Shown here in pieces: positions 4,777-58,572 of a stretch of DNA of 64,000 bases. The stretch comes from Candidatus Limnocylindria bacterium (GTDB taxonomy: Bacteria; Chloroflexota; Limnocylindria; Limnocylindrales; CSP1-4). The DNA lies in contig JBKHXL010000063.1 of the NCBI GenBank assembly GCA_046566045.1, positions 21,460-85,459 on the forward strand. Direction: 5' to 3'. The notes below the pieces were generated by a model. That model worked only from the letters and a program-made list of their open reading frames with translations. It searched no databases and was not told the DNA's origin. A program made the position numbers and the translations under genes. Each line of letters begins with the position of its first letter. Position 1 is the first letter of the stretch.

Positions 4777-4781
4777 GCCCC

Positions 4782-6031: not shown

Positions 6032-6277
6032 ATGACCGAGACCGCCACCACCGTCACCCGCACCGTGGATGCCCGCGGCAGCTTCTGCCCCGGGCCGCTG
6101 ATGGAGCTCATCCGCGCCATCCGCGAGTCCGAGGTCGGCGATGTCATCGCCGTCCTGTCGTCCGACAAGGGTTCCAAGGTGGACATCCCCACGTGGGTCG
6201 AGAAGGCCGGCCACCGCCTGGTCGCCCTCGAGGCCCGCGACGGCCACGACGAGATCGTCGTCGAGAAGCGTCGCTAG
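6032..6277 (+). CDS. tusA: TusA-family sulfurtransferase (second copy)
   Basis: VDARGSFCPGP (CPxP) motif, LSSDKGSKVDIPTWV; SD AAAGGA. Confidence 0.9.
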   Translation: MTETATTVTRTVDARGSFCPGPLMELIRAIRESEVGDVIAVLSSDKGSKVDIPTWVEKAGHRLVALEARDGHDEIVVEKRR

Positions 6278-6290
6278 GAAGGACCCTGAC

Positions 6291-7448
6291 ATGCAGCGGA
6301 TCGTCATCCTGGGCGGCGGCGTCGGAGGGACGCTGACTGCCAATCTCCTGGCCAAGCGGCTGCGCACGCGCATCGACGCCGGCGAGGTCGAGCTCGTCGT
6401 GGTGGACGCCACCGGGACGCACGTCTACCAGCCCGGGTTCATGTACATCGCCATGGGCGGGGAGAAGGCGGCGAACCTGGAGCGCCCGGAGCGCTCGCTG
6501 CTCGACAAGCGAGTGACCCTGCTCGTCGGTGACGTCGTGCGCGTCGACGAGACGCGCCGGGTGATCGCCCTGGCCGACGGCATGGAGCTGGGTTACGACC
6601 AGCTCGTGCTGGCGACCGGATCGCGCATCGCCCCGGAGGCGATCCCGCACTTCGACGAGGAGGCCCACCACTTCTACACCGCCGCGGCCTCGGCCCGGCT
6701 GCGGGCCGCACTCGACGCGTTCAGGGGCGGTCGCATCGTGATCGGCATCGCCGGCATGCCCTACAAGTGCCCGCCGGCGCCGCTCGAGGTCGCCTTCCTC
6801 ATCGAGGCGGAGCTGCGCGAGCGCGGCCTGCGCGAGCGGACCACGCTCGACTACTGCTCACCCATCGGGCGCGCGTTCACCATCGAGAGCGTGTCCGGGA
6901 TGGCCACGCCGATCCTGGAGCAGAAGGGCATCGAGCTGCACACGTTCTTCAACGTCGAGGCGATCGATCCCGAACGCAAGGTCGTGCAGTCGCTCGAGGG
7001 AGAGGAGCTGCCCTACGATCTGCTCATCCTCGTTCCGCCGCACACGGGCCAGCCGTTCCTGATGGACTCCGGCCTGGCGCCCGCGCCGGGCGGCTGGCTG
7101 CCGACCGACCGGCACACGCTGCTCGTCGGCGACCGGACCGATGTGTACGCCCTGGGCGACGCCACCGACCTGCCGCTGTCCAAGGCCGGGTCGACGGCGC
7201 ACTTCGAAGCGCCGATCGTGGCCGAGCGGATCGCGGCGGCCATCGAGGGCCGCGAGCCCTCCGGGAAGCATGCCGACTACGAGGGCAAGGTCATGTGCTT
7301 CTTCGAGGTCGGGGACGGCAAGGGCACGCTGCTGCAGTTCGACTACGACCACCCGCCCAGGCCGCCGAAGCCGAACCAGTTGTGGCACCTGGGCAAGATC
7401 GTCTTCAACAAGACGTACTGGCACACGGTCCCCAAGGGCCGGGTCTAG
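6291..7448 (+). CDS. sqr: Sulfide:quinone oxidoreductase-like flavoprotein (type III/SqrC-like)
   Basis: IVILGGGVGG Rossmann motif, HVYQPG, YKCPPAPLE active-site Cys, YALGDA, KAGSTAH, YEGKVMCF second Cys, C-terminal amphipathic K.YW helix. Confidence 0.85.
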   Translation: MQRIVILGGGVGGTLTANLLAKRLRTRIDAGEVELVVVDATGTHVYQPGFMYIAMGGEKAANLERPERSLLDKRVTLLVGDVVRVDETRRVIALADGMELGYDQLVLATGSRIAPEAIPHFDEEAHHFYTAAASARLRAALDAFRGGRIVIGIAGMPYKCPPAPLEVAFLIEAELRERGLRERTTLDYCSPIGRAFTIESVSGMATPILEQKGIELHTFFNVEAIDPERKVVQSLEGEELPYDLLILVPPHTGQPFLMDSGLAPAPGGWLPTDRHTLLVGDRTDVYALGDATDLPLSKAGSTAHFEAPIVAERIAAAIEGREPSGKHADYEGKVMCFFEVGDGKGTLLQFDYDHPPRPPKPNQLWHLGKIVFNKTYWHTVPKGRV

Positions 7449-7478
7449 GCCACGCGAGGCACTGACGGGAGGAACGGC

Positions 7479-7913
7479 ATGCTCTCGAACATACTGCTCG
7501 CCGTCGACGGCAGCGACGCCGCACTTGGGGCCGCTCGGGCGGCCGCCGCGCTGGCGGCTGCGACGGGCGGATCCATCCGGGTCCTGAGCGTCCATCACGA
7601 GCCCGCCGATTCGCTCGGCGAGCCGCTCTACTCCGCCTCGTTGGACCGTTCCCTCGACGAGGCGGAGGAGCACCTCTCCGCCGCGGTCGCCGCGATCCGA
7701 GCGGCCGGCGGCCCTGAGCCGACGATCGACCGGCTGGCCGGCCATCCGGCGGACGCGATCCTGTCCGCGGCCGACGCGGGCCACCACGACGTGATCGTCC
7801 TGGGCAACCGCGGCCGCGGCCGCGTGGCCGCCGCACTGCTCGGCTCGGTCTCGACGGCCGTGGCCTCGCGGGCGAGGATCCCGGTCCTCATCATCCCGCA
7901 CGAGGCGGGCTGA
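7479..7913 (+). CDS. Universal stress protein (USP)
   Basis: ILLAVDGSD; DVIVLGNRGRG...LLGSVS..VA..ARIPVLII. Confidence 0.93.
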   Translation: MLSNILLAVDGSDAALGAARAAAALAAATGGSIRVLSVHHEPADSLGEPLYSASLDRSLDEAEEHLSAAVAAIRAAGGPEPTIDRLAGHPADAILSAADAGHHDVIVLGNRGRGRVAAALLGSVSTAVASRARIPVLIIPHEAG

Positions 7914-7929
7914 ACCCACGCCGACGCGA

Positions 7930-7961
7930 CGGCGCCCCCGGTCGGCCGACCGGGGGCGCCG
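7930..7961. terminator. Perfect 32-bp palindrome between convergent genes, likely bidirectional terminator
   Basis: cggcgcccccggtcgg-ccgaccgggggcgccg. Confidence 0.7.
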
Positions 7962-7985
7962 CGCTGTGCTCGGCCGCGGAGCGGC

Positions 7986-10900
7986 CTACTTGAACTGGAA
8001 GGTCGCGCTGTGCGTGGTGCCGTCGACCAGCTTCACGTCGAGGCGATAGCACGAGCCCTTGTACGTCTTGGCCGTCTTCCAGACGTAGGTATAGCGCTCG
8101 GACACGGGGTCGTACTGGAGACCGCTGGACCCGTTCGACACCACCTCTTCGATCGTGTCCTCCGCCACGCTCGTCGCGCAGGTGATCTTGGTCGCCTTCG
8201 GGAAGCCGGTGGCGAAGATCCCGGTCAGGCCCCGGTCCCCGCCGAGCGAGAACTTGATCGGGATGCTGCTGCCGGCGGTCGCCGTGTTGCGGACCGCGTT
8301 GTCGACGGGGGAGTAGAACCCGCCCCACGGCCAGATGATCAGCGACGCCTCGGCTGACGACATCGATGCCTCGTAGATCGGATCCGTCAACGTCGTCGTC
8401 AAGGTTCCGGTCCACGGGTTGAGAGGGATGGTTCCGCTGAAGTACGCCCGGACCTCGTACGGTCCGACCGGCAAGTCTGGGGTGGAGCCAAGGTTGGCGG
8501 TGCCGTCGGCGCCGGTCGTCACCGACTTCGTCAGGCCGAAGCCCATCGTCGTGCCGGAACCGGTCCCCTCTAGAACGAAGAACACCGTTCGGGAGCCGAC
8601 CGCGGTGCCGGAGCCATCGGGCGCCCGCAGCGTCGCTGAGATGCCGCTCGCCCCGCCAACCGTCGCGTCGGGAGCGGTCAGGACCAGGCTGGTCGACTGC
8701 TTCGTGATCGTGAACGACGTCGCGTCGCCGCTCGACGCATGCGTCGCGTCCCCGGAGAAGGTGGCCGTGAGTTGCTGGGTGCCCGGCGTGGCGATGAGCG
8801 GCAGCGACGCCGAGGCGACACCGCCGGCGTCGGTCGTCGCGGTCACGACCGACGTCCCGATGCGGAACGAGACGGTCCGGCCGGTGAGCGCGCCCGGGCC
8901 GGTCAGCGTCGCGGACACGCTCGTGCTCGCCCCGTACGTGCCGGACGAACCGGCCGTCAGGACCAGGGTCGACGCGGCGGGCTGCGGCGCCGGGATCGTG
9001 GCGAGGGAGTGGTACGCGCCCTGGTTGTCGTTGATGCCGACGAGGGCGGCCCGGTTCGCGGCCTGGACGATGAAGCGCAGGTCGGCCGGGTCATCATCGA
9101 CGCCGATGCTCAGTGTCGCCGACCAGCTCGACGGATCCATGGCGCTGCGGACCAGCGGCACCGACGCCCAGCACGTGCAGCCGTCGTTGCCGTAGGTGTA
9201 GGTGATCCAGGCGGACTGGATGTTGTCAGCGCCATCGGGATCGGTGCCGCTGATGATCGCCGTGAAGGTGACGGTCGAGCCCGACAGGTCGGCGTCGACC
9301 GCGCCGATGGTGGGTGCCGCGGCCTGACCCGCGATCGGGTCGTTGGCGGGCACGTAGAACAGCTTGAGGCCCAGGCTGGAGAACAGCCGCCTCGTGACCG
9401 GGTCGGTGCCGACCCTGTGCTGCGCCGGCGTGACCACGAGGTTGGTGGACCCACCGGAGAGGTCCCCGAAGTAGCTGGCAGCCCACATCCGGGCCGGGAA
9501 GAAGGTGGTCGACGTGAACGGCGTCTGCGCGCCACCGAACTCGGTGCCCGGTGCGCCCGTGAACGGGGTGACCCCGTTCGTGTCGGTGAAGGCACCGCTC
9601 CAGAAGCCGATGCCACGGAGGACCTTGCCCGACAGGCCGACGTTCGCCACGTAGCGCGACAGGGCCGGCTCGCCCGGGTTGGATGCGACGCCGTCAGGCC
9701 CGCTCAGATAGGTCGAGCCACCGGGCCCCGCGTTGGACGTGGTCGGGATGGGATTCGGGCCCCCACCTCCCAGGTCGAGGGTGCCGATGGTGACCGCCCC
9801 GTCCGTGGACGTGGACGTCACGATCGAGCCGCTCGAACCGCTCGTGTCGCGCGTCCCGGGCATGTCCACCGAGAACATCGGCAGGCCGAAGACGCTGGCC
9901 GTGAGGATGGCCTTCTGGTGCATCCCTTGACCTCGGGCGTGGCCGCGAGGTAGGCGAGCTTCGATGCATTGAGCGCCTGGCCGACCGCGACCGGGCCCGT
10001 CCCGACGCGCAGCTGGTGCGCGAACTCGGCGTAGATCCGCTCGCTGTACTCGATCAGCTCGTCGTCGCCGTACTGGAAGCCCGTGCCGGCGACCAGGGTC
10101 GCGCCCTTGCGGCCGAGGACCTGGGCCCAGTCGGCCGTCTGGGTGACGCCGCTGATGCCGTGCGCATCGACGAGGTTGTAGCCGGCATGGCAGCCGATGC
10201 TGAACACCAGGGCGTTCATCAGGTCGACGTCCGGAGCCAGCAGCTCCGAGGCGTTGACCGTCGTCTGCAGGTCGGCCGCGAGCGTCGCCGAGGCATCGAA
10301 GTGGCCGGCGAGGTAGACGATGTCATTCCGGGTGGGGCCAAGGAGGCTGGCCCGCAGGTCGTTCGCCGTCCAGGTGTCGTTGATCAGCGTGGCCGGCGTC
10401 GCGCCGGTGCCGGCGGCGAGCTGGTCCGTGACCTCATTCGAGGAGTCCGTCAGGAACTCGTACCCGGTCACCAGCGACGAGCCGGGGGTGACGGTCTTGA
10501 CCGTCGTGCCCTGGACGTAGGCGTCGATCATCGCCGACGCCTCTGCTGCGGTCTCGACCAGGCGCCCGACGGCAAGGTCGGGGATCGGGAAGCGGGTCCC
10601 GCCGAGCGAGAGGACCGTGCTCGCACCGTACTCGTCCTGCCCAAGGACATGGTCGCTGCGCAGGACGGCCTCGGAGGAGGTGCCGGCGCCGAGCGGCGGG
10701 ACGAACCAGGATTCCGGGGCGAGGTCGGACGGATCCGGATAGCGGAAGAACGGCACCGACGTGTCGCCCCCGACCAGCACGACGTACTGCAGGTTCGGGT
10801 TGTCGTAGGTCCGGACGACGTCACGGATGGCCGACGCGACCAGGTTCTGGGCGTAGACACAGTCCTGGTTGGCATCAGCCTGGGCGTGCAGCGCGGCGAT

Positions 10901-27635: not shown

Positions 27636-29039
27636 ATGACCGCCACCCGCGACATCGTCACCGACCAGCGCGACCAGTTCGCGTTCCACGACGACATCGT
27701 CTACCTCGCCGAGACCAAGCGCGGTCTCAGCCGCGAGACCGTGGAAGAGATCAGCCGCTTCAAGGAGGAGCCGGACTGGATGCTCCAGTTCCGGCTGCGC
27801 GCGTTCGAGCACTTCCAGAGCCGGCCGATGCCGACCTGGACCGACGGCCTGGATCGCATCGATTTCGACAAGATCGTCTACTACCGCAAGCCGTCGGAGC
27901 GCGAGGAGCGGTCGTGGGATGACGTGCCCGAGCAGATCAAGGCGACGTTCGAGAAGCTCGGCATCCCCGAGGCGGAGCGCAAGTTCCTGGCCGGCGTGGG
28001 CGCGCAGTACGACTCCGAGGTCGTCTATCACTCGGTCAAGGAGGAGCTGAGCAAGATCGGCGTGGTCTTCATGGGCACCGACCAGGCGCTCAAGGAGTAC
28101 CCGGAGATCTTCCGCACGTACTTCGGCACGATCGTCCCGCCGGAGGACAACAAGTTCGCCGCGCTCAACAGCGCCGTGTGGTCCGGCGGATCGTTCGTGT
28201 ACGTGCCCAAGGGTGTCGAGGTGCCGCTCCCGCTGCAGGCCTACTTCCGGATCAACGGCGAGAACACCGGCCAGTTCGAGCGCACGCTGATCGTCGTGGA
28301 CGAGGGCGCCAAGGTCCACTACATCGAGGGCTGCACGGCCCCGATCTACGCCACCGACAGCCTCCATGCCGCGGTCGTCGAGGTCGTCGCCCTGCCCGGC
28401 GCGAAGGTCCGCTACACGACCATCCAGAACTGGAGCAACGACGTCTACAACCTCGTGACCAAGCGCGCCCACGCGTACGAGGACAGCACCGTCGAGTGGA
28501 TCGACGCCAATACCGGCTCGCGCAAGACGGTCAAGTTCCCGGCCATCTACCTGCGCGGTGAAGGCGCCACGGCGGACATCATCAGCGTCGCGGTCGCGGG
28601 CAGGGGCCAGCACCAGGACACCGGCGCCAAGGCCATCCACCTCGCGCCGAACACCCGCTCGCGCATCGTCAGCAAGTCCGTCTCCAAGGACGGCGGGCGG
28701 GCGACCTACCGCGGGCAGCTGAAGGTCGCGCCGGGGGCCACGAACGTCGTCGCCAGCGTGCGCTGCGATGCGCTCATGCTCGACGACATCAGCCGCAGCG
28801 ACACCTACCCGTACATCGATATCCAGGAAGACGACACGACCATGTCGCACGAGGCGACGGTCGGCAAGGTGAGCGCCGATCAGGTCTTCTACCTGATGAG
28901 TCGAGGCCTGACCGAGAACGAGGCCACAAATCTCATCGTCCAGGGCTTCCTCGGGGTCTTCACCAAGGAACTGCCGATGGAATACGCCATCGAGTTCAAC
29001 CGGCTGGTGAAGATGGAGATGGAGGGGTCGCTCGGATGA
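27636..29039 (+). CDS. sufB: Fe-S cluster assembly protein SufB
   Basis: LAGVGAQYDSE, NSAVWSGGSF, GQFERTLI, YIEGCTAP, YTTIQNWS, SHEAT, EYAIEFN. Confidence 0.97.
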   Translation: MTATRDIVTDQRDQFAFHDDIVYLAETKRGLSRETVEEISRFKEEPDWMLQFRLRAFEHFQSRPMPTWTDGLDRIDFDKIVYYRKPSEREERSWDDVPEQIKATFEKLGIPEAERKFLAGVGAQYDSEVVYHSVKEELSKIGVVFMGTDQALKEYPEIFRTYFGTIVPPEDNKFAALNSAVWSGGSFVYVPKGVEVPLPLQAYFRINGENTGQFERTLIVVDEGAKVHYIEGCTAPIYATDSLHAAVVEVVALPGAKVRYTTIQNWSNDVYNLVTKRAHAYEDSTVEWIDANTGSRKTVKFPAIYLRGEGATADIISVAVAGRGQHQDTGAKAIHLAPNTRSRIVSKSVSKDGGRATYRGQLKVAPGATNVVASVRCDALMLDDISRSDTYPYIDIQEDDTTMSHEATVGKVSADQVFYLMSRGLTENEATNLIVQGFLGVFTKELPMEYAIEFNRLVKMEMEGSLG

Positions 29040-30391
29040 CGGCCCCGGCCGCACGACCGAGGCCCGCGCGGCGGGCCCTCGACGACCTGTCCCTGCCCGT
29101 CGACGCCGCCGCGGTCGAGGCGGCCGGCGCGGGCGATCCGGACTGGCTCCGGGACGACCGCCGCGCCGCCCTTGCCGCCTACGAGGCCCTTCCCGGCGAG
29201 TCCAACCAGCTGTACACCCCATACATCGACCTGCGCGCCGCGCAGCTGGCCGACGCCAGGTTCGTGGTCGCCGCCGGCGCCCCCGATGTCGCGGACCTGG
29301 AGGCCGGCGAGGACGCCCGCATCGAGACCGGCGACGACGGCACCGTCCGGGTCGCCCTGTCCGCCTCGGCGCGCGCCGCGGGCGTGACCGTCGCCCCGCT
29401 GCGGGCCTCGGTCGAGGGGCTGCGCGATCGGCTGGAGGGTGGTGCCGCGCTCGCCGCCGACGACAAGTGGGCGCAGCTGACCCGGGCGCTGTGGAGCCAC
29501 GGCGCCGTCGTGGACGTCCCCGCTGGGGTCCGCCTGGAGCGACCCATCGTGGTCCGCTGGTCGGTCGGCGGGAGTGGTCGCGCGCTCGTGACGCGCACGC
29601 TCATCCGCCTGGGCGCCGGAGCGCGGGCCCAGGTGGTCGAGGAGCTCGTCCCGACGGCGGACGGCGCCCCGGCCGCGCAGTCGTTCTTCGCCGGCACGAC
29701 CGAGCTCGTCCTCGACGCCGAGGCGATCCTGCGCATGGCCAGCCTCCAGGAGCTGCCCGCGCACGTGGTGGCCATCCAGCATCGTCACGCCGCGATCGGC
29801 GAGGCGGCCGCGGTCCAGTGGGCGCTCGCCCAGCTCGGCGGCCGGCTGGTGCGCAGCCGCGTGGACAATCGGCTGATCGGCGACCGGAGCTCCGTCGAGC
29901 AGGTCGAGATCGTGTTCGGCAGCGACGACCAGGTGTTCGACCTGACCTCGTACACCACCCACATCGGCCGGGACACCACCGGCGACCTCTTGTCGAAGGG
30001 CGCCCTGCTCGAGCGGGCCCGCGCCTCGTTCAAGGGCCTCATCACCATCGACAAGACCGCGGTCGGCACGGACAGCTTCCTTGGCGAGTTCGGGATGAAC
30101 CTCTCGAAGCAGGCCCGCTCGGTGGCCATCCCCAGCCTCGAGATCGACCAGCCGGACTGCCGCCGCGCGATGCACTCGTCGTCGGTCGGCCCGGTCGACG
30201 AGTCCCAGCTGTTCTACCTCGAATCGCGGGGCATCCCGGAGGACGAGGCCCGCAAGTTCATCGTCCTCGGATTCCTCGAGCCCGTCGTGGCCCGCGTCCC
30301 GCTGGCCTCCGCGCAGGACCACCTGCGCGAGCTGCTCGAGGCCAAGTGGACGGCCGGCACCGACGGCGTCAGCGGCGAGGCCGCGGCGTGA
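29036..30391 (+). CDS. sufD: Fe-S cluster assembly protein SufD
   Basis: SufBD beta-helix; IPSLEI, HSSSVG, LFYLESRGI.E.EARKFIVLGFL; ATGA overlap with sufB. Confidence 0.92.
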   Translation: MTAPAARPRPARRALDDLSLPVDAAAVEAAGAGDPDWLRDDRRAALAAYEALPGESNQLYTPYIDLRAAQLADARFVVAAGAPDVADLEAGEDARIETGDDGTVRVALSASARAAGVTVAPLRASVEGLRDRLEGGAALAADDKWAQLTRALWSHGAVVDVPAGVRLERPIVVRWSVGGSGRALVTRTLIRLGAGARAQVVEELVPTADGAPAAQSFFAGTTELVLDAEAILRMASLQELPAHVVAIQHRHAAIGEAAAVQWALAQLGGRLVRSRVDNRLIGDRSSVEQVEIVFGSDDQVFDLTSYTTHIGRDTTGDLLSKGALLERARASFKGLITIDKTAVGTDSFLGEFGMNLSKQARSVAIPSLEIDQPDCRRAMHSSSVGPVDESQLFYLESRGIPEDEARKFIVLGFLEPVVARVPLASAQDHLRELLEAKWTAGTDGVSGEAAA

Positions 30392-30428
30392 TCCCTCCAG
30401 AACCCCGGCCGCCCGCGGGCGCTCGCCC

Positions 30429-30764
30429 GTGAGGCGGATCGACCTGCTGGGCGTCGACGAGGTCGGCGACGGCGAGATGCGGATGGCCTGGGTGGACGGG
30501 ACCGATCAGGTCCTCGTCATCAACCAGGGCGGTGACTTCACGGCGGTCCAGGGCATCTGCTCGCATGAGTACTTCGAGCTGGACAAGGGCTTCCTGACCA
30601 ATGGGACGCTGACCTGCGCGCTGCACCTGTCGCGCTTCGACCTGTCCGACGGCGAACCGCTCGACCCGCCGGCCGAGGAGCCGCTGGCGGTCTATCCCGT
30701 GGTGGTGGAGGACGGCCGGGTGGTCATCGAGGTCCCCGACGGACCGCTCGACCTGAGCGAGTAG
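30429..30764 (+). CDS. Rieske [2Fe-2S] ferredoxin
   Basis: CSH...CALH (CxH-x17-CxxH), RFDLSDG.P..PPA. Confidence 0.92.
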   Translation: MRRIDLLGVDEVGDGEMRMAWVDGTDQVLVINQGGDFTAVQGICSHEYFELDKGFLTNGTLTCALHLSRFDLSDGEPLDPPAEEPLAVYPVVVEDGRVVIEVPDGPLDLSE

Positions 30765-39786: not shown

Positions 39787-40806
39787 ATGTTCACGACCAC
39801 CCCGGACCCCATCGCCCTGACCATCGGCCCGCTGTCCATCGGCTGGTACGGCCTCGGCTACGCCGTCGGCCTGGCGGCCGTCTACCTGCTGCTGACCTGG
39901 CTCGCCAGGCGGGCCGGCGAGGACCCCGAGCTGATCGGCAACGGGATCATCATCGTCGCGATCGTGGCCCTCATCGGTGGGCGCCTGTACCACGTCATCG
40001 ACCAGTGGCAGCTGTACGCGGCCGATCCGCTCAGGATCATCCTGCCGCCCTACTCCGGGCTCGGCGTCTACGGCGGCCTGGCGACCGGGATCGTCGCGGT
40101 CGCGCTCATCACCCGGGCGAAGGGGGTCTCCTTCTGGCGCTGGGCGGACGTGATCGTCCCGTCGCTGTTCCTGATGCAGGCGATCGCCCGCTGGGGCAAC
40201 TACTTCAACCAGGAGCTGTACGGGCCGCCGACCACCCTGCCGTGGGGCATCCCGATCGACTGCGAGCGCCGCATCAGCGCCTACGCCTGCGATCTACTCC
40301 CGTTCGAGACCACGCGCTTCCACCCGCTCTTCCTGTACGAGTCGCTGTCCGGCGTCATCGGCGTGCTCGCCCTGCTCTGGATCGGCTTCCGGTTCCGCGA
40401 CCGGCTGCGACCCGGCGACATCGCCGGCATCTTCTTCATCTGGTATGCCACGGTCCGCTTCGCCCTGGAGAGCCTGCGCGAGGACAACTGGGTCGCCTTC
40501 GGGATCCCCGTCGCCCAGCTCGTCAGCGTGCTGTTCATCGTCGTGACGGCGGCCATCCTGCTGTGGCGCCATCGATCCGGCGCTGCCGACAACGACCGGC
40601 CGCCGTCGATCCCGGGCGTGGCCACGTGGGGCGCCATCGGACCGAATGACTGGCAGCAGCGGCCGATCTCGGAGCCCTGGGCGGTGGCCGCCGAGCGCGA
40701 TCCGTTCGACGACGATGACGAGACGGATCCGTTCGACGACAGCGAGGCCGGGCCGGACGGGGATGGCGGGCCGGACGATCGGGAGGCGGCGCGCACGACA
40801 CCGTGA
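39787..40806 (+). CDS. lgt: Prolipoprotein diacylglyceryl transferase
   Basis: IGWYG, GGRLYHV, ARWGNYFNQELYG signature, LPWGI, HPLFLYES; leaderless TACACT-7nt-ATG. Confidence 0.93.
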   Translation: MFTTTPDPIALTIGPLSIGWYGLGYAVGLAAVYLLLTWLARRAGEDPELIGNGIIIVAIVALIGGRLYHVIDQWQLYAADPLRIILPPYSGLGVYGGLATGIVAVALITRAKGVSFWRWADVIVPSLFLMQAIARWGNYFNQELYGPPTTLPWGIPIDCERRISAYACDLLPFETTRFHPLFLYESLSGVIGVLALLWIGFRFRDRLRPGDIAGIFFIWYATVRFALESLREDNWVAFGIPVAQLVSVLFIVVTAAILLWRHRSGAADNDRPPSIPGVATWGAIGPNDWQQRPISEPWAVAAERDPFDDDDETDPFDDSEAGPDGDGGPDDREAARTTP

Positions 40807-41781: not shown

Positions 41782-43212
41782 ATGCAGTACGCCGAGTCCA
41801 TCCTCGATCTCGTCGGGAACACGCCGCTCATCCGGATCACCCGCCTGGTCCGTGACCTGGGCCCGATGGAGCGCCAGCCGCTCCTCCTGGCCAAGCTCGA
41901 GATGCTCAATCCGGGTGGCTCGGTCAAGGATCGCATCGGCCTGCCGATGATCGAGGCGGCCGAGCGAGCCGGCCTGCTCGAGCCCGGCGGCACGATCATC
42001 GAGCCGACCAGCGGCAACACCGGGCACGGTCTGGCCATCGCCGCTGCCCTGAAAGGCTACCGCTGCATCTTCGTCATGGCCGACAAGCAGTCGGTCGAGA
42101 AGCAGTCGCTGCTGCGGGCCTACGGCGCCGAGGTGGTGCTCTGCCCGACCAACGTCCCGCCCGAATCGCCGGAGAGCTACTACAGCGTGGCCGCCCGCCT
42201 TGCCCGCGACATCCCCGGGGCGTTCAAGCCGGACCAGTACTGGAACCCGGAGAACCCGGCCGCCCACGAGCGGACGACCGGCCCCGAGCTGTGGGCGCAG
42301 ACCGACGGCCGCATCACGCACTTCGTGGCGAGCGTCGGCACGGGCGGCACGATCTCCGGCACGGCGCACGTCCTCAAGGAGCGGAACCCGTCGATCCGGA
42401 TCGTCGGCGCCGACCCGGAGGGGTCCGTGCTGTCCGGCGACACCGCCCGGCCGTACCTGACCGAGGGCGTCGGCGAGGATTTCTTCCCTGGCACGTACGA
42501 CCCCGCGGTCATCGATCGCTGGGTCCGCGTCAGCGACGCCGACGCGTTCGCCATGGCCCGGCGCCTGACCCGCGAGGAGGGGATCTTGAGCGGTGGCTCG
42601 TGCGGGACCGCGATGGCCGCCGCGCGCGAGGTCGTGCGCGACCTGACCGCCACGGACGGTGGCCATGAGGCGGTCGTGGTGGTGCTCCTGCCAGACACGG
42701 GCCGGAACTACCTCTCGAAGCTGTACAACGACGAGTGGCTGCGGGTGAACGGCCTCCTTGCCACGACGGGCGCGACCACGCGCATCGAGGCGCTGCTCGC
42801 CGCCCGGCACCACGGTCCGGACATGCCGTCCGTCATCGTGGCGCGCACGACGGAGCGGGTCGGCGACGCCATCGCGACGCTCCAGGAGTACGGCATCAGT
42901 CAGCTCCCGGTCTCGGAGGAGCCGGAGGGCGACGACGTGTCGGGCCTCGTCGGCTCGATCAGCGAGAAGGGCCTGCTCGATCGCGCGTACCGGGATCCGT
43001 CGGTCGTGGAGCGCACCGTCGGCGAGGTCATGGACGCGCCGTTGCCGCTGGTCGCCGCCTCGGCCACGCTGGACGATGCCTTCGCCCTGTTGTCAGGTGG
43101 CACGGTCTCGGCCGTGGTCGCGGTCCGCGGCGAGCGCCCGGCCGGCGTCGTCACCAAGCTCGACCTGCTGGAGTACCTGGCGCATCGGCCGCCCGGATCG
43201 TCCGGGGCCTGA
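41782..43212 (+). CDS. cbs: Cystathionine beta-synthase with C-terminal CBS domains
   Basis: NPGGSVKDR (PLP Lys), TSGNTG, PDQYWN, GTGGT, EGVGEDF; C-terminal CBS pair; leaderless TATACT-8nt-ATG. Confidence 0.93.
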   Translation: MQYAESILDLVGNTPLIRITRLVRDLGPMERQPLLLAKLEMLNPGGSVKDRIGLPMIEAAERAGLLEPGGTIIEPTSGNTGHGLAIAAALKGYRCIFVMADKQSVEKQSLLRAYGAEVVLCPTNVPPESPESYYSVAARLARDIPGAFKPDQYWNPENPAAHERTTGPELWAQTDGRITHFVASVGTGGTISGTAHVLKERNPSIRIVGADPEGSVLSGDTARPYLTEGVGEDFFPGTYDPAVIDRWVRVSDADAFAMARRLTREEGILSGGSCGTAMAAAREVVRDLTATDGGHEAVVVVLLPDTGRNYLSKLYNDEWLRVNGLLATTGATTRIEALLAARHHGPDMPSVIVARTTERVGDAIATLQEYGISQLPVSEEPEGDDVSGLVGSISEKGLLDRAYRDPSVVERTVGEVMDAPLPLVAASATLDDAFALLSGGTVSAVVAVRGERPAGVVTKLDLLEYLAHRPPGSSGA

Positions 43213-43298: not shown

Positions 43299-44453
43299 AT
43301 GCGAGCTGACGACATCGAGCGCGACCCAAGCTTCGACACCCTGGCGGTCCACGCCGGCGCGGAACCGGACGAGCTGACCGGCGCCGTCGCGCCGCCGATC
43401 TACCAGACCTCCACCTTCCGCCAGGACGGCGTGGCCAGCCCGCGCGGCGGCTACGAGTACGCCCGCTCGCAGAACCCGACGCGCGAGCGCCTCGAACGCG
43501 CCGTCGCCGCCCTCGAGGGCGGCCGCCACGGCATCGCCTTCGCCAGCGGTTCGGCCGCGACGGCGGCCATCGCCGAGCTCATCGGGCCGGGCGAGAGCGT
43601 CGTCGTCGGGGACGACGTGTACGGCGGCACGTACCGGTACCTGGAGCAGGTCCGCAAGCCCGGGGCCGGCATCGACACCGCCTTCGTCGACCTGTCCGGC
43701 GATCTCGACGCGCTCTGGGAAGCCGTCACAGCGAAGACCCGGCTGGTCTGGTTCGAGACACCCTCGAACCCCCTGCTCAAGGTCGTCGACATCGGGGCCG
43801 TGCGCGAGGTGCTCGACCGGCGGGCGGCGGAGGGGGGCGGTCGACCGCACCTGGTGGTGGACAACACGTTCGCCTCGCCGGCCCTGCAGCGTCCGCTGGC
43901 CGAGGGCGCCGACATCGTCTTCCACTCGGCGACGAAGTACCTGGCCGGCCACTCGGACACGATCCTCGGGATCGCCGTCACCGACGACGATGCCATCGCG
44001 GCCCGCCTGCGCTTCCTGCAGAACGCCATGGGCGGCGTGCCCGGACCGCTCGACTGCTTCCTGGTCCTGCGCGGCCTGCGCACCCTGCACCTGCGCATGG
44101 AGCGGCACACGGCCAACGCCCGGGCCGTCGCGGCGTTCCTGCGCGAGCGCCCGGACGTGGCCGCGGTGCGCTACCCGGGGACCGGCGGGATGGTCTCGTT
44201 CACGCCGGCCGCGTCGAGCGAGCGTGCCGCCGCGGATCGGGCCATCGTCATCGCCGAGTCGACCCGCCTCTTCACGCTCGCCGAATCGCTCGGCGGCGTG
44301 GAGTCGCTCATCGAGGTGCCGGCCGCGATGACCCACGCCTCGGTCGCCGAGTCGGCGCTCGAGGTCGACCCGGCGCTCATCCGGCTGTCGGTCGGCATCG
44401 AGGGCATCGACGACCTCATCGGTGACCTGGGCCAGGCGCTCGACCGCGCCTGA
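43299..44453 (+). CDS. Cystathionine gamma-lyase/synthase
   Basis: PIYQTSTF, YARSQNPTR, YGGTYR, ETPSNP, VDNTFASP, HSATKYLAGHSD, ESLGGVESL; leaderless TACCAT-6nt-ATG. Confidence 0.93.
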   Translation: MRADDIERDPSFDTLAVHAGAEPDELTGAVAPPIYQTSTFRQDGVASPRGGYEYARSQNPTRERLERAVAALEGGRHGIAFASGSAATAAIAELIGPGESVVVGDDVYGGTYRYLEQVRKPGAGIDTAFVDLSGDLDALWEAVTAKTRLVWFETPSNPLLKVVDIGAVREVLDRRAAEGGGRPHLVVDNTFASPALQRPLAEGADIVFHSATKYLAGHSDTILGIAVTDDDAIAARLRFLQNAMGGVPGPLDCFLVLRGLRTLHLRMERHTANARAVAAFLRERPDVAAVRYPGTGGMVSFTPAASSERAAADRAIVIAESTRLFTLAESLGGVESLIEVPAAMTHASVAESALEVDPALIRLSVGIEGIDDLIGDLGQALDRA

Positions 44454-44477: not shown

Positions 44478-45080
44478 TCAGCGCGAGGCCCTGAAGAGCA
44501 CGAAGCCACCGGCCAGCAAGAGCGCGATCGAGCCGGCCGCGATCAGGACCGGCAGCACGGGACTCGTCCTCGGCGCGGCCGCGGCCATGGGCAGGGGATC
44601 GGGCATCGGTCGTCCGACCAGCATGTAGACATCGGCGATCGTCACCGTCTCGATACCGATGCGCTGCGGCGGGACGCCCTGGATCCAGGCAACGGCGTTC
44701 ACGACCTGCGGTGGCTCGAAGTCACGTCCGCCGATGGCCAGTGCGATGACGTCGCCGACCCGGCCGACGACGTACCCCGCGCACGGCTGGGACTGCACGT
44801 CCTCGAACCGCTCTTCGACGATCCGGTCGTCCTCGAGGACCGACCAGCCGCGCAGGAAGAACCGGCTCGTCCTGCCGGCTTCATCGGGCGGCGCGTCGGG
44901 ACCGGGATCGATCGCAACGACCTGTCCGATGAGCACACGGCTCGCTGTCGGGGCGGCGTTCGTGAACGACGGGTACGGGCCATCGCACTCCGCAGCGACG
45001 ACCTCGACGCGGCCGGCCGCGGCGATCGCGGCGAGGGAACCTGCGAGCACCGCCGCCCGGATCAGGCCTCCCGGCTGCAC
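44478..45080 (-). CDS. Hypothetical exported protein with a C-terminal membrane anchor (possible TIMP/NTR-like fold)
   Basis: Signal-like N-terminus, AECDGP..F..A....LIGQV, second Cys, C-terminal TM; starts 1 nt after the moaD stop. Confidence 0.6.
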   Translation of the reverse strand: MQPGGLIRAAVLAGSLAAIAAAGRVEVVAAECDGPYPSFTNAAPTASRVLIGQVVAIDPGPDAPPDEAGRTSRFFLRGWSVLEDDRIVEERFEDVQSQPCAGYVVGRVGDVIALAIGGRDFEPPQVVNAVAWIQGVPPQRIGIETVTIADVYMLVGRPMPDPLPMAAAAPRTSPVLPVLIAAGSIALLLAGGFVLFRASR

Positions 45081-45081: not shown

Positions 45082-45354
45082 TCAGCCGCCGGCCATCGCC
45101 GGGAGGAGGACCAGCGTGTCGCCGTCGGCGACGGGCGTGTCGAGGTCCTGGAGATGGCGCACATCGGTGTCGTTGAGGAACGCGTTGACGAAGCGGTTCA
45201 GGTCGCCGTCGGGCGCGATGAGCTGCGAGGCGAGCGACGGATGGACCGCCACCAGCCCGTGGATGACCTCGCGGACGGAGCCCGCCGGTACCTCCACGGT
45301 CTTCGCGCCGCCGGTCGAGGTGCGCAGCGTCGGGGGGATGCGGACCGTGCTCAC
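45082..45354 (-). CDS. MoaD/ThiS/CysO-family ubiquitin-like sulfur carrier
   Basis: VRIPPTLR, LNRFVNAFLND.DVR, terminal AMAGG; GTGA overlap with thrC. Confidence 0.93.
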   Translation of the reverse strand: MSTVRIPPTLRTSTGGAKTVEVPAGSVREVIHGLVAVHPSLASQLIAPDGDLNRFVNAFLNDTDVRHLQDLDTPVADGDTLVLLPAMAGG

Positions 45355-46703
45355 GAGGCGTCCCCGAGCCACGCCTCGAAGGCGCTCAGGCTCGGCCGGA
45401 TGACCGGCGCCAGGCCGGGCTGGCCGGAAGCCACGCGGCCACCCTCGAGCGAGCCCTCGACCAGGCCGAGCGTGCGCGCATCGGGGGTCTTGAGCCCATT
45501 GCCGGTGATGAGCGCCACGACCTCGTCGCCGTCACGGATGACGCCCCGCCGACGAGCGGCCGCGACGGCCGCCAGGGTCACGCCGCCGGCCGTCTCCGGG
45601 TAGATGCCCTCGAGGCGCGCGACGTCGCGGATGGCCTCGGCCGTGACGACGTCCTCGATCGCCTCGATCGACCCGCCGCTCTCGCGCGCCAGTTCGACCG
45701 CGTAGCGACCGTCGGCCGGGTTGCCGATGGCCAGCGAGCGCACGATGGTGTCCGGCTCGCGGATGGGCTCGATGACGTCCGTGCCGCGCTCGAAGGCCGT
45801 CGCGACCGGGGCGCACCCGGCCGCCTGGCCGCCGACGAAGCGGATCGGGCGGCGCTCGATGAGCCCGAGCTCCGCCAGCTCCTCGAAGCCGCGCGCGACG
45901 CGGGTGAACATCGCGCCGCTGGCGACCGGGCCGACGAGCACGTCGGGCGAGCGCCACCCGAGCTGCTCGGCGATCTCGTAGGCAAGGGTCTTGGAGCCCT
46001 CGGCGTAGAACGGGCGGAGATTGATGTTGACGAAGCCCCAGCCGGTCTCGTCGGCGATCTCCAGGCACAGCCGGTTGACGTCGTCGTACGTGCCGGCGAC
46101 CGGCACCACCGTGGCCCCGTAGGCCAGCGCGTGGTCGACCTTGGCCGGCTCGAGGTCGGCCGGGATGAAGACGTAGGCGGGCAGGCCGACGGCCGCCGCG
46201 GCCGCGGCCGTGGCGCCCGCGAGGTTCCCGGTCGAGGCGCACGCGAGGGCGGGCACCCCGAACGCCACGGCCTGGGCCGCGGCCACCGCCACCGCGCGAT
46301 CCTTGAATGACAGGGAGGGGTTGCGCGTGTCGTCCTTGAGCCACAGCCGATCGACGCCCAGGACCGGGGCCAGGCGATCCGCGGCCACCAGCGGGGTGGA
46401 CCCGACGGCCAGCGACCGCGCCGGCGCCGCGTCCACGGGGAGCAGCTCCAGGTAGCGCCAGATGCCGGGCGCGCGGCGTTCGATCGCCGCTCGCGTGAAC
46501 GTCGCCCCGGCGAGGGCCAGGTCGTAGGTCACCTCGAGCGGCCCGAAACAGGCCGGACACACGTAGCTGATGGCGAGCGGCTGGGCGAGGCCGCAGTTGC
46601 GGCAGGCCATGCCCGTGATCCGCGCGCGCTCGCCGGCCATCGGCGCAGCCGGGTCGGCTGGCTGGCTGGTCGTCGTCGGGCGGGTCACGGTGGTCGCGGT
46701 CAC
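45351..46703 (-). CDS. thrC: Threonine synthase-like PLP enzyme
   Basis: N-terminal CRNC/CPAC Zn ribbon, GIWRYLELLP, SFKDR (PLP Lys), ASTGNL, NLRPFYAEGSKT, TGNGLK. Confidence 0.9.
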   Translation of the reverse strand: MTATTVTRPTTTSQPADPAAPMAGERARITGMACRNCGLAQPLAISYVCPACFGPLEVTYDLALAGATFTRAAIERRAPGIWRYLELLPVDAAPARSLAVGSTPLVAADRLAPVLGVDRLWLKDDTRNPSLSFKDRAVAVAAAQAVAFGVPALACASTGNLAGATAAAAAAVGLPAYVFIPADLEPAKVDHALAYGATVVPVAGTYDDVNRLCLEIADETGWGFVNINLRPFYAEGSKTLAYEIAEQLGWRSPDVLVGPVASGAMFTRVARGFEELAELGLIERRPIRFVGGQAAGCAPVATAFERGTDVIEPIREPDTIVRSLAIGNPADGRYAVELARESGGSIEAIEDVVTAEAIRDVARLEGIYPETAGGVTLAAVAAARRRGVIRDGDEVVALITGNGLKTPDARTLGLVEGSLEGGRVASGQPGLAPVIRPSLSAFEAWLGDAS

Positions 46704-46797
46704 GTCGGCTCTCCATGGGTGCGTCGCGGTGGCGCGGAGACCGGCGGTCGGATGGACGGGGACCCTGACGGTTCGGATCGGGGGCTCCGGAGAGTCC

Positions 46798-46901
46798 CGT
46801 ATCTCGCAGGATGACCTGCCCGGAATTGGCACCTTGCCGACGTCGCGTCGGTAGGTTGTCGTGGCGTCAGCGGGCCGGTCCCTCAGCCATCTCTTGATAC
46901 G
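46798..46901 (-). ncRNA. SAM-I (S-box) riboswitch
   Basis: Minus strand: cgtATCAAGAG..GAGGGAccGGCCC..TGA..CAACC..GGTGCCAATTCC..gcagg/cctgc P4..GAGATacg; P1 is cgtatc/gatacg. Confidence 0.92.
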
Positions 46902-46922
46902 TACTCTTCAGTTGTGGTCCGG

Positions 46923-46951
46923 ATGCTAGGGCCTCGTGCGCGTGTCGTCAA
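46923..46951 (-). promoter_or_regulatory. Sigma70-type promoter of the SAM-I/thrC operon
   Basis: TTGACG-17nt-TAGCAT on the minus strand. Confidence 0.75.
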
Positions 46952-53455: not shown

Positions 53456-54313
53456 GTGCCGACCGCCACCATCACCTTCGGCTTCGACCCGATCCTGCGC
53501 CTCGGACCCGACCTCGCCGTGCGCTGGCAGACGGTCGCCCTGGCCGTGGTCATCGCCGCCGTGCTGACCTGGACGACGCGCTCGGTCCGCGCGGCGCGGC
53601 TGCGCCCCGACGACCTGCTGTCGATCGTCATCGGTGCCGTCCCGGGCGCGGTCATCGTCGGACGGATCGCCTGGATCGCCGCGCATCCGGGGATCGTCCC
53701 GCTCGACCCGTGGGCGTGGCTCGACCCGTCGCTGGGCGGGGTGGACCTCGCGGCCGGGGTCCTCGGCGGGATCGGCGGGGGAGCGCTCATCGCGTCCCTG
53801 CTCGGGGTGCCGGTCGAGACGTGGGCACGGCTGGCCGCCGTCCCGTTGCTCGTCGCCATCGGGGCCGGCAAGCTGGTGATGGTCCTCGGGGGCAGCGGCC
53901 AGGGTCTGCCGGCCGACCTGTGGTGGGCGACCGCGTACGACGGGCCCGGACCGTGGGGTTCGCTCGCGGCGGCGCTGCCATCCCACCCGTCGCAGGCCTA
54001 CGAGGGTCTCGCCACGCTCGTGCTGGCGCTCGCCACGACGCGGGCGACCGGACGATCCGCGACGCCCGGCACGGCCCTGCTGGCCGGGGCGGTCGGGTCG
54101 TACGCCGTGGTCCGCGCCGCCGTCGCCCTGACCTGGCGGGACCCGGTCGTCGCCGGTCCGCTCGGAGCCACGGGCTGGACGGCCGTGCTGGTGGCCGCCG
54201 CGAGCCTCGCCGTCGCGCTGGCGGTCATCGCCCTCCACGAGCGGCGACGGCGAGGTCGAACGGCCCAGCCCGTCGTCGACTGGCCGGATCCGGCGACCCG
54301 GCCGCGGTTCTGA
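53456..54313 (+). CDS. Divergent Lgt-family paralog
   Basis: TFGFDPI, IGAVPGAVIVGRI, HPSQAYEG; lacks the R-x-G-N-F-x-N-x-E signature. Confidence 0.75.
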   Translation: MPTATITFGFDPILRLGPDLAVRWQTVALAVVIAAVLTWTTRSVRAARLRPDDLLSIVIGAVPGAVIVGRIAWIAAHPGIVPLDPWAWLDPSLGGVDLAAGVLGGIGGGALIASLLGVPVETWARLAAVPLLVAIGAGKLVMVLGGSGQGLPADLWWATAYDGPGPWGSLAAALPSHPSQAYEGLATLVLALATTRATGRSATPGTALLAGAVGSYAVVRAAVALTWRDPVVAGPLGATGWTAVLVAAASLAVALAVIALHERRRRGRTAQPVVDWPDPATRPRF

Positions 54314-57187: not shown

Positions 57188-57628
57188 ATGACCGACTACG
57201 AACGCACCACCACCCGCGAGACCACCGTCACCGACCCGACCCCGACCACCCGTGACGCGGTGCCGGTCCGCGACACGGTGAGCACGAGCGAGCGCGCGTA
57301 CCGGACCGCCGGCCCGAGCGCGAGCAGCGTCGTCGCCCGCTTCGTGACCTTCCTGTTCGGGATCCTCCAGGCGGCGCTCATCCTGCGCATCATCCTGCTG
57401 GTCCTCGTGGCCAACCAGGGCAACGACATCGTCGCCCTGATCCTCGGCATCACCGACCCGTTCGTCGAGCCGTTCCGCGGCATGTTCGCGCTCGATCGCG
57501 TGACCGGCGAGCAGGGCTCCACCCTCGACGTCGCCGCTGTCGTCGCGCTGATCGGCTGGACGCTGATCGAGCTGCTCGTGCTGGCGCTGCTGCGGATCTT
57601 CGATCGCCGCGAGGTCACGACCGTCTAG
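57188..57628 (+). CDS. YggT-like membrane protein
   Basis: ALILRIILLVL..N..N.IV..I..ITDPFV.PF.GMF; GGAGG SD. Confidence 0.8.
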   Translation: MTDYERTTTRETTVTDPTPTTRDAVPVRDTVSTSERAYRTAGPSASSVVARFVTFLFGILQAALILRIILLVLVANQGNDIVALILGITDPFVEPFRGMFALDRVTGEQGSTLDVAAVVALIGWTLIELLVLALLRIFDRREVTTV

Positions 57629-58572
57629 CGCTCCGTGACGCCGGCCGTCGCGGGAGCCGCTGCCGGGGCGGCGCTGGTGACGGCGGCCGCCAGCGCGGCG
57701 ATGTCGGCCGGACCGGTGCCGCAGCAGCCGCCCAGCCACGTGGCGCCGAGCGCCGTCCAGCCGGCGACGGTGGCACCGTCGAACGCCTCGGATGCGCTCG
57801 TCGCGACCCAACGGTGGGCGGTCGCATCCCAGCGGTCGCCCGCGTTCGGGTAGGCGATGCGCGCCAGCGCCGGGGCCGTCGCTGCGGCCGCGGCCAGGAG
57901 GTGCGGGACCAGGCGCGGCGCCGTGCAGTTGACCCCGACCGCCTCGATGCCGCCGCTCCCCGCCGCGACGGCCATCGCGTCGGCGATCGGCTCGCCGGCG
58001 GCCGTGCTGGCCTCGTCCCGACACTGGTAGGTCAGCCAGGCCCGCGCCCCGCGCTCCTCGACCAAGCGGACCAGCACCTCGGCCTCGCGCATGGTCGGGA
58101 TGGTCTCCAGCGCCAGCAGGTCCGCCCCGGCCTCCAGCAGCGCGTCCATCCGCGGCGCGTGCACCTCGCGCAGCGCGTCCGGCCCGGGATCGTAGTCGCC
58201 GCGGTACTCGGACCCGTCGGCCAGCATCGCCCCGTACGGCCCGACCGAGCCGGCGACCAGCAGCGGCCGGTCGATGTCGGCGCCGGCCGCGGCGACGTGC
58301 GCATCCCGGGCCCGGCGCGCGAGCGCGACGCTGCGCCGGATCGCCGCCAGGGCCGCGTCTCGATCGAGCCCTGCGGCCTCGAAGCCCTGGACCGTGGCCT
58401 GGTACGACGCGGTCGTGGCGACCCGTGCCCCGGCGTCGAAGTAGGCGCGGTGGACGGCCTCGATGGCGTCCGGGTCCTCGACCAGGACGCGCGCCGACCA
58501 GAGGCGGTCGGACAGGTCCAGGCCGCGCGCCTCCAGCTGGGTGGCGAGGCCGCCGTCGAGCACGATCGTCAT
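57625..58572 (-). CDS. mmuM: Homocysteine S-methyltransferase
   Basis: LDGGLATQLE, WSARVL, SVGPYGAMLADGSEY, ETIP, GVNC, YPNAG, GGCCG. Confidence 0.94.
   Translation of the reverse strand: MTIVLDGGLATQLEARGLDLSDRLWSARVLVEDPDAIEAVHRAYFDAGARVATTASYQATVQGFEAAGLDRDAALAAIRRSVALARRARDAHVAAAGADIDRPLLVAGSVGPYGAMLADGSEYRGDYDPGPDALREVHAPRMDALLEAGADLLALETIPTMREAEVLVRLVEERGARAWLTYQCRDEASTAAGEPIADAMAVAAGSGGIEAVGVNCTAPRLVPHLLAAAAATAPALARIAYPNAGDRWDATAHRWVATSASEAFDGATVAGWTALGATWLGGCCGTGPADIAALAAAVTSAAPAAAPATAGVTER

Follow-up and report, generated by a model that had tools for sequence, protein, structure and literature searches.

On the minus strand of a 64-kb stretch of DNA from a Candidatus Limnocylindria bacterium (contig JBKHXL010000063.1, 72.5% G+C; this whole stretch is called the window below) lies an operon in which a riboswitch of the SAM-I class precedes two genes, one for an enzyme of the threonine synthase (ThrC) family and one for a small sulfur carrier of the ThiS/MoaD/CysO family. 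We consider it very probable that this is a metM-metO operon of Limnocylindria-like Chloroflexota, repressed by S-adenosylmethionine (SAM), whose products make homocysteine from O-phosphohomoserine and the thiocarboxylate of the carrier. The anatomy of the operon, the family placement of its products, their conserved coupling and the conserved control by SAM were all computed in the present work.

A consensus scan for sigma-70-type promoters (two sites versus 0.1 expected in shuffles) placed a promoter at 46951-46923, with the -35 hexamer TTGACG at 46951-46946, a spacer of 17 nt and the -10 hexamer TAGCAT at 46928-46923; TTGAC and TAG-AT are invariant across eight related Limnocylindria loci and their flanks are variable. 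The SAM-I aptamer (Rfam RF00162) follows at 46796-46903, then an expression platform of 92 nt at 46704-46795, which has no U-tract terminator and carries the Shine-Dalgarno sequence GGAGAG at 46714-46709, and then the MetM-like gene at 45351-46703, which encodes 450 amino acids. Its start was assigned to the GTG at 46703, 63 nt upstream of the first ATG, because this codon aligns with the ATG of relatives and has GGAGAG just ahead; the stop lies at 45351. The MetO-like carrier gene (45082-45354, 90 amino acids) begins with a GTG that overlaps the TGA stop of the enzyme gene as GTGA, an overlap that indicates co-translation. An earlier note on this DNA had proposed the promoter, a SAM-I element, the thrC-like gene, the GTGA overlap and a carrier ending in GG, and all of them were found on the minus strand where it had placed them.

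A codon-usage model called 58 genes in the window, each of which was scanned against Pfam. Relatives of the operon came from a one-genome-per-species scan, which gave more than 598 of them; the best 80 loci were analysed together with two metagenomic contigs and Nonomuraea gerenzanensis, making 83 loci labelled L001-L082 and L083 (Nonomuraea, NZ_LT559118.1). The nearest homologues of the window enzyme, up to 96% identical, belong to metagenome-assembled genomes, of which the named ones are mostly Chloroflexota or 'Candidatus Limnocylindrales'. Streptomyces did not appear among the best 80 genome loci, and a search of a plasmid collection gave Nonomuraea as the only member of the clade defined below. 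The Nonomuraea record, entered in PLSDB as 'Nonomuraea gerenzanensis plasmid I', spans 11.85 Mb, has a housekeeping thrC and is evidently a chromosome mislabelled as a plasmid.

The ThrC-like enzyme and its clade

The window enzyme is a fold-type II enzyme dependent on pyridoxal 5'-phosphate (PLP): it contains a PALP domain (E 1e-68), is matched by solved ThrC structures at E 1e-49 to 1e-57, and keeps the PLP lysine, K134 in SFKDR, as an invariant residue. It also passes the NCBIfam thrC model TIGR00260 (248.7 bits vs a cutoff of 167.1), a model that fails to separate the paralogue from true threonine synthases, since it gives 305.7 bits to the true ThrC2 of L065 and 270.2 bits to the MetM-like enzyme of Nonomuraea. 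All database homologues that we saw carry the name 'threonine synthase', because NCBIfam lacks a model for MetM and lets the paralogue pass as a thrC equivalog. The identity of a cysteate synthase was rejected, with TIGR03844 scoring 52.8 bits against a cutoff of 324.9.

For the family placement, the MetM-like proteins were aligned with four solved ThrC structures (from Aquifex, Bacillus subtilis, Thermus thermophilus and Mycobacterium tuberculosis) and with four short ThrC paralogues (ThrC2) that adjoin the long form in L065, L066, L070 and L082. The window enzyme shares 38-40% identity with the four solved ThrCs, 50.5% with the Nonomuraea protein and 46-51% with cyanobacterial members. Together with 82 relatives it forms a MetM-like clade whose members are at least 45% and on average 61% identical, and the canonical group (the four solved ThrCs and the four ThrC2) has an internal mean of 62%; between the two groups the mean falls to 36.6%. 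Clustering by the unweighted pair group method with arithmetic mean on p-distances recovered this split in 200 of 200 bootstraps, and 25 substitutions are specific to the clade.

Several of these substitutions fall in the conserved motifs of ThrC. ASTGNT becomes ASTGNL in the MetM-like clade (T to L), GNAGN becomes ASG, IGNPASW becomes IGNPADG (SW to DG) and GLKDP becomes GLKTP. The motif NSVNPxRxEGQKT is replaced by the clade consensus N(V/I)NLRPYYAEGSKT, read as NINLRPFYAEGSKT in the window enzyme, so that the Arg of NPxR is changed to Tyr and a new Arg appears three residues earlier. The replaced positions are invariant within the clade and differently invariant in ThrC, and the window enzyme does not carry the canonical ThrC motif set. 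In the T. thermophilus structures, several of these motifs are reported to contact the phosphate and carboxylate of the substrate. Judged from the alignment, the changes would fit an altered second half-reaction.

The N-terminal ribbon of four cysteines in the window enzyme (C34, C37, C49 and C52) is also invariant in the clade. As a diagnostic of the clade it was rejected: P0171 combines the four cysteines with the canonical NPYR motif, and haloarchaeal 'thrC' proteins align from residue 28. These haloarchaeal genes, found on megaplasmids (plasmid matches H2-H19), are about 35% identical to the window enzyme, Cys ribbon included, and lie outside the MetM-like clade by identity.

Genomes that carry both forms of the enzyme are informative here. 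In Nonomuraea gerenzanensis, SAM-I, a MetM-like gene and a MetO-like gene lie at 11.81 Mb and a separate ThrC, 64.9% identical to that of M. tuberculosis, is encoded at 2.50 Mb; because this ThrC coexists with it, the MetM-like paralogue is not the housekeeping enzyme there. A canonical ThrC adjoins the MetM-like gene in L065, L066, L070 and L082. 

The SAM-I riboswitch and its expression platforms

SAM-I riboswitches typically control methionine genes. In the window, RF00162 matches over its full length (model positions 1-108 of 108) with 62.5 bits, above the gathering score of 44.4 (E 3.9e-12), and is the sole Rfam match in the 64 kb. The related loci were searched with our own covariance model, built from eight Rfam-confirmed aptamers, which gives 105.8 bits to the window aptamer; the L083 aptamer was found by Rfam. 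Besides the window, SAM-I was present just upstream of the MetM-like gene and on the same strand in 39 of the 83 loci (38 of L001-L082, and L083), labelled Chloroflexota, Actinomycetota, Kiritimatiellae and Sumerlaeota. Among the 83 loci, those labelled Cyanobacteria, Nitrospirota or Aquificota gave no match, which for the cyanobacterial loci agrees with the report on Microcystis (PMC12172450). The 39 aptamers upstream of MetM-like genes show compensatory changes in 23 of 28 pairs, and 92.6% of their cells are paired vs 31-51% when the partners are slid; the observed values were reached in none of 500 shuffles. These figures come from an alignment fitted to the model, so that the structure is somewhat favoured in them.

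Three solutions for the expression platform were found. In Acidimicrobiia (L010, L018, L029, L048 and others) the Shine-Dalgarno sequence, GAGGAGG, lies within the 3' strand of helix P1 and the start codon comes 7-9 nt past the aptamer, an arrangement that would amount to direct translational control. Loci of Solirubrobacterales and some others (L038, L050, L061, L063, L056, L009) have a GC hairpin and a T-run after the aptamer, which would act by transcription termination. The window and its close relatives have a spacer of about 90 nt with no terminator. The existence of three platforms argues that repression of this gene by SAM is under selection, and such selection fits an enzyme of the methionine pathway and not threonine synthesis.

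In the leader of the window operon, no intrinsic terminator was found, so masking of the Shine-Dalgarno sequence, the mechanism that we propose, or Rho-dependent termination as its alternative, is the likely way of switching. The platform contains a hairpin, GGGACUCUCCGGAGCCCC (46798-46781), which has GGG in common with the 3' strand of P1 and includes CUCUCC (46794-46789), complementary to the Shine-Dalgarno GGAGAG. A further segment, CCGGUCUCC (46744-46736), is likewise complementary to it. Folds of the single leader sequence gave z-scores above 0 and a paired Shine-Dalgarno in every scenario, and thus no discrimination on switching.

One locus, L065, a Chloroflexi metagenome-assembled genome from groundwater, carries other leader elements: a T-box leader at 7116-7542 on the plus strand (104 bits), just downstream of metO, and a weak SAM-I-like match at 4832-4933 (29.9 bits); its canonical thrC lies upstream, at 2594-3694.

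The sulfur carrier and the genes around the operon

The window carrier belongs to the ThiS family (PF02597, E 4.7e-12), and the solved structures closest to it are 4n6e_B (E 1e-18) and CysO of M. tuberculosis (3dwg_C, E 3.3e-16), the latter a proven thiocarboxylate carrier. The last residues of the window carrier, directly before the stop codon, are PAMAGG, and with this terminal Gly-Gly it requires no maturation protease. The pairing of such a carrier with the enzyme in other bacteria, already mentioned in the earlier note, is the rule of the family: the MetM-like gene is followed immediately by a MetO-like gene in 70 of the 83 loci. These represent at least 8 phyla, and in 20 of them the carrier gene overlaps the enzyme gene, as it does in the window. 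Among the carriers of the related loci, 55 end in Gly-Gly and about 10 have short C-terminal extensions that would need trimming.

The activation of the carrier is represented in several clusters. In L075 (7226-8293), directly after the metM-like gene, a ThiF domain (PF00899, E 2.5e-87) is fused to the carrier through the Gly-Gly of the latter, and ThiF genes cluster with metM-metO in eight loci including this one. The other seven (among them L015, L042, L058, L052, L049 and L054) come from Nitrospirota, Thermodesulfobacteriota, Sumerlaeota and Chloroflexota. This fusion and clustering tie the carrier to activation of the E1 type. L015 and L042 each contain two ThiF genes and a PALP gene resembling CysM/CysK, arranged as PALP, ThiF, MetM, MetO, NIL, ThiF, and the same kind of PALP gene is in the cluster in L058 and L075. 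To judge from this gene order, one carrier may serve both cysteine and homocysteine synthesis in L015 and L042. In L049 a carrier of similar identity adjoins a CysM-like gene, so MetO and CysO are indistinguishable by sequence.

The NIL domain is a second recurrent neighbour. An open reading frame (ORF) of about 80 amino acids with this domain lies directly after metO in Nitrospirota, Thermodesulfobacteriota, some Chloroflexota and L075, and is not present in the window; in L049 and L032, where no adjacent metO was found, it lies directly after the metM-like gene. Its positions are 7614-7853 in L015, 7534-7815 in L042, 7567-7806 in L058, 1793-2041 in L066, 1712-1948 in L070, 7608-7844 in L082, 7264-7506 in L049, 6388-6630 in L032 and 8300-8542 in L075. 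In the Sumerlaeota locus L052, Pfam identifies a fusion of carrier and NIL (ThiS + NIL) at 7623-8156. Both the ThiF and the NIL neighbours emerged from fusion proteins and not from the clustering of ORFs across loci, which gave mostly antisense shadow ORFs and lineage-specific genes (trehalose phosphatase, Cpn60, CorA). Compared with the components listed for Streptomyces albulus by papers citing the original report, the ThiF genes and the NIL protein may be additional members of the MetM/MetO cluster.

On the plus strand of the window, and convergent with the operon, are the genes of cystathionine beta-synthase (CBS; 41782-43212; identified by Pfam, with TIGR01137 at 531.5 bits vs a cutoff of 510.25) and of a cystathionine gamma-lyase/synthase-like enzyme (CGL-like; 43299-44453; Pfam, with PRK07811 at 458.8 bits, below its cutoff of 513). 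The latter is a member of the Cys/Met-metabolism PLP family and is closest to the MetB/CGL of the M. tuberculosis type; together the two constitute a route from homocysteine to cysteine. Among relatives, the CGL-like gene is retained in L001-L005 and CBS in L001-L003; in L003 the CGL-like gene lies about 330 nt past the enzyme gene. The convergence on CBS-CGL described in the earlier note therefore stands, except that it is not immediate: a minus-strand ORF of 200 amino acids (44478-45080) intervenes, whose GTG start is one base past the metO-like stop. Its codon-usage score is weak (29), it has no Pfam or NCBIfam match and no homologue in the 83 related loci, its N-terminus is hydrophobic, and its approximately 600 nt are missing from the syntenic L001 and L002. 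It may be either a lineage-specific gene or not a gene, and may be co-transcribed with the metO-like gene. The mmuM gene that the note had called nearby is in the window (57625-58572, minus strand; PF02574 E 5.6e-75; PRK09485 348.5 bits vs a cutoff of 215), at a distance of about 10.7 kb from the operon; the Rfam scan found no riboswitch for this MmuM-like homocysteine S-methyltransferase.

Further neighbours are Lgt and an acyltransferase near the locus and, upstream and divergent, an ATP-dependent phosphoenolpyruvate carboxykinase and malate dehydrogenase. The window has two Lgt paralogues, at 39787-40806 and at 53456-54313 on the plus strand, of which the second is far more divergent (E 9e-14 vs 6e-60), and both are retained in the syntenic L001 and L002. 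Elsewhere on the plus strand, a sulfur-trafficking cluster at 4420-7448 consists of an ArsR-type regulator, a DsrE-like protein, TusA, a second DsrE-like protein, a second TusA and a pyridine-nucleotide-disulfide oxidoreductase. This last enzyme weakly matches the central domain of flavocytochrome c sulfide dehydrogenase and thus resembles the SQR/FCSD type (sulfide:quinone oxidoreductase or flavocytochrome c sulfide dehydrogenase). From its gene content, the cluster could supply or detoxify sulfide or persulfide. At 27636-30764, also on the plus strand, SufB and SufD genes are followed by that of a small Rieske [2Fe-2S] protein, with no sufC or sufS between them among the called genes. No second ThrC and no MetX, MetA or MetY was found among the 58 Pfam-scanned genes of the window.

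Proposed pathway and known systems

The chemistry that we propose is carried over from the literature on MetM/MetO of S. albulus, as represented in citing papers, and would apply to the Limnocylindria host by analogy. Transcription would begin at the conserved promoter. When SAM is abundant, the SAM-I aptamer would fold and the two translationally coupled genes would be shut off; when it is scarce, both proteins would be made. An E1-like ThiF/MoeZ protein, which would be encoded elsewhere, would adenylate the Gly-Gly end of the carrier and lead to its thiocarboxylate. The MetM-like enzyme would bind O-phosphohomoserine and eliminate its phosphate, yielding a vinylglycine-type intermediate as in threonine synthase, and the sulfur of the carrier thiocarboxylate would be added at C-gamma, instead of water at C-beta. 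Homocysteine would be released directly or by hydrolysis of a carrier-homocysteine adduct; such an adduct, if it forms, may need a Mec-type hydrolase, as CysO-cysteine does in M. tuberculosis. Finally, homocysteine would be methylated to methionine, and the adjacent CBS and CGL-like enzymes could turn it into cysteine. The earlier note had reached the same gamma-replacement of O-phosphohomoserine by inference; that proposal gains support from the reported MetM/MetO pathway, as far as the citing papers give it, and, on the genomic side, from the clade split, the coupling to a carrier, SAM-I and the links to ThiF, which point in the same direction.

Several observations weigh against this reading. 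The closest relatives of the window operon, L003, L006, L007 and L008 (65-82% identity of the enzyme), keep promoter, SAM-I and enzyme and have no MetO-like gene within 6 kb; either their carrier is encoded elsewhere or the dependence on it has been relaxed. The Pfam scans of the 58 called genes found no ThiF, MoeB or MoeZ, nor any JAMM/Mec protein, rhodanese or thrB, and phmmer with a ThiF domain had no match among all ORFs of the 64-kb window, which bears out the remark in the earlier note that an E1-like activator is missing from it; since only the window was covered, this does not argue against membership in the MetO/CysO family. The helix between CCGGUCUCC and the Shine-Dalgarno sequence is predicted by RNAalifold with only two covarying pairs, which is weak support for it as a candidate switching helix. 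The orthology with S. albulus is indirect and would follow a chain of identities, from the window enzyme, about 50% identical to cyanobacterial and actinomycete members, to that of Microcystis aeruginosa, reported as 51.6% identical to MetM. Finally, the M. aeruginosa 'ThrC' is reported to have threonine synthase and threonine deaminase activity in vitro and not to replace MetM fully in vivo (PMC12172450); because this member of the clade behaves so, membership is no guarantee of function.

Three rival explanations were weighed against carrier-dependent synthesis of homocysteine. The one to which we give most room, itself very unlikely, is that the enzyme depends on the carrier and makes another product, such as cysteine from O-phosphoserine in the manner of CysM/CysO, or some other thio-amino acid, with SAM read as a signal of general sulfur status. 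The carrier's closest solved relatives are indeed of the CysO type, and the CysM/CysK-like PALP genes clustered in L015, L042, L058 and L075, like the L049 carrier beside its CysM-like gene, speak for it; yet the enzyme belongs with the ThrC family, which acts on O-phosphohomoserine, rather than with CysK/CysM, the CysM models scoring about 37 bits vs cutoffs above 390. The homologous S. albulus enzyme, moreover, is reported in the citing papers to make homocysteine from O-phosphohomoserine, and methionine genes are the usual targets of SAM-I. We hold it highly improbable that the enzyme is an O-phosphohomoserine sulfhydrylase using free sulfide or a small thiol, for which the carrier would be dispensable or conditional. 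The four carrier-less close relatives and several other loci that keep SAM-I and enzyme with no adjacent carrier would be accounted for in this way, as would the window's lack of an activator. Against it, carrier and E1 genes often lie apart in genomes, enzyme and carrier genes are adjacent in most loci of the family, their GTGA overlap in the window points to co-translation, and the S. albulus enzyme is described, in what the citing papers convey, as dependent on MetO-thiocarboxylate.

Least probable of the three is an ordinary threonine synthase with a SAM riboswitch upstream, perhaps to apportion O-phosphohomoserine to the threonine or the methionine branch, and with the MoaD-like gene as an unrelated neighbour serving molybdopterin or protein modification. 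Such an enzyme would explain the score above the TIGR00260 cutoff, the name given to every database homologue and the retention of the PLP lysine and of the greater part of the ThrC core, and a cyanobacterial member of the clade is reported active as such in vitro (PMC12172450). It would leave unexplained the separate clade with its invariant changes in conserved ThrC motifs, the canonical ThrC that coexists in Nonomuraea and four further loci, the carrier coupled across phyla, often through overlapping codons, the recurrence of SAM-I control with three independent platforms, and the ThiF genes fused to or clustered with the pair.

An extension of the preferred reading, homocysteine synthesis by MetM/MetO, seems to us rather unlikely though not negligible, namely that Limnocylindria-type Chloroflexota assimilate sulfur 'homocysteine-first'. 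If this is true, reduced sulfur reaches amino acids mainly by way of MetM/MetO, and cysteine is then made through CBS and the CGL-like enzyme, with no O-acetylserine or O-acetylhomoserine sulfhydrylase involved. A related possibility, raised by the retention of SAM-I and the enzyme in L003 and L006-L008 with no carrier gene nearby, is that the carrier dependence of the enzyme may have been relaxed in this lineage.

The statement of the earlier note that no firm biochemical assignment existed is outdated, as the pathway was reported for S. albulus in 2024, according to the papers that cite the work, and our finding therefore opens no new question. It extends the MetM/MetO route beyond Streptomyces and cyanobacteria, to uncultured high-GC Chloroflexota and at least 7 other phyla. 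It also concerns annotation: with the homologues entered as 'threonine synthase' and the paralogue passing the NCBIfam thrC model, reconstructions of metabolism from these genomes will overlook one way to methionine and may include a spurious one to threonine, and the clade-specific motifs could seed a discriminating model. Further value lies in the varied regulation, with three platforms, and in the ThiF and NIL genes that join the cluster in several phyla.

Among known systems, the closest is that of S. albulus (Hasebe, Adachi, Maruyama and Hamano 2024, Appl Environ Microbiol 90:e01247-24, whose content is given here as citing papers present it). It makes homocysteine from O-phosphohomoserine and MetO-thiocarboxylate (Hasebe et al. 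2024, cited in 10.1101/2024.10.14.618325 and PMC12172450), and its components are the carrier MetO, MoeZ, Mec and the MetO-thiocarboxylate-dependent homocysteine synthase MetM (10.1101/2024.10.14.618325); a SAM riboswitch lies upstream of metM (PMC12172450). The M. aeruginosa enzyme shares 51.6% identity with MetM, and the carrier of the same species 47% with MetO (PMC12172450); ThrC of B. subtilis is 33% identical to MetM (2026 preprint). As far as these accounts describe it, the S. albulus system shares with the window a ThrC-homologous enzyme paired with a small ThiS/MoaD-type carrier gene, a SAM riboswitch upstream, an activator encoded elsewhere and the predicted reaction from O-phosphohomoserine and carrier-COSH to homocysteine, and Nonomuraea (L083), of the same class as Streptomyces, has a layout of SAM-I, MetM-like and MetO-like genes identical to that of the window. 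The window differs in its host, a member of the Chloroflexota, in its platform, a long spacer without terminator, and in the convergence of the operon with CBS and CGL-like genes; moreover, Mec is listed as needed for the maturation of MetO in the citing GapMind preprint (10.1101/2024.10.14.618325), whereas the window carrier ends in Gly-Gly.

The CysM/CysO/Mec/MoeZ system of M. tuberculosis resembles the window in that a thiocarboxylated ThiS/MoaD-like carrier supplies sulfur to a PLP enzyme of fold type II whose substrate is a phosphorylated hydroxy-amino acid. Unlike it, the window has an enzyme that is ThrC-like and not CysK/CysM-like, stands under a SAM riboswitch, and is predicted to use O-phosphohomoserine in a gamma-replacement instead of a beta-replacement, with homocysteine as product. 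The HcyS/MetY/HcyD/HcyF pathway of Wolinella succinogenes, reportedly described by Krishnamoorthy and Begley in 2011 and mentioned in PMC5764234, is said to take the sulfur of homocysteine from a protein thiocarboxylate as well; its enzyme, MetY, is reportedly a fold-type I O-acetylhomoserine sulfhydrylase acting on O-acetylhomoserine, and its carrier is said to be proteolytically processed. In the window, in contrast, no MetY-type gene is coupled to the carrier. Canonical ThrC (2D1F of M. tuberculosis, 1UIM of T. thermophilus, 6CGQ of B. subtilis, 2ZSJ of Aquifex) agrees with the window enzyme in fold and PLP lysine, and presumably in substrate and first half-reaction. The window enzyme departs from it by the extra Cys ribbon, the coupling to a carrier and control by SAM rather than in relation to threonine. 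Finally, the plant cystathionine gamma-synthase route, with its fold-type I enzyme, cysteine as sulfur donor and cystathionine as intermediate, is built differently, and has in common with the proposed route that O-phosphohomoserine is the branch point to methionine.

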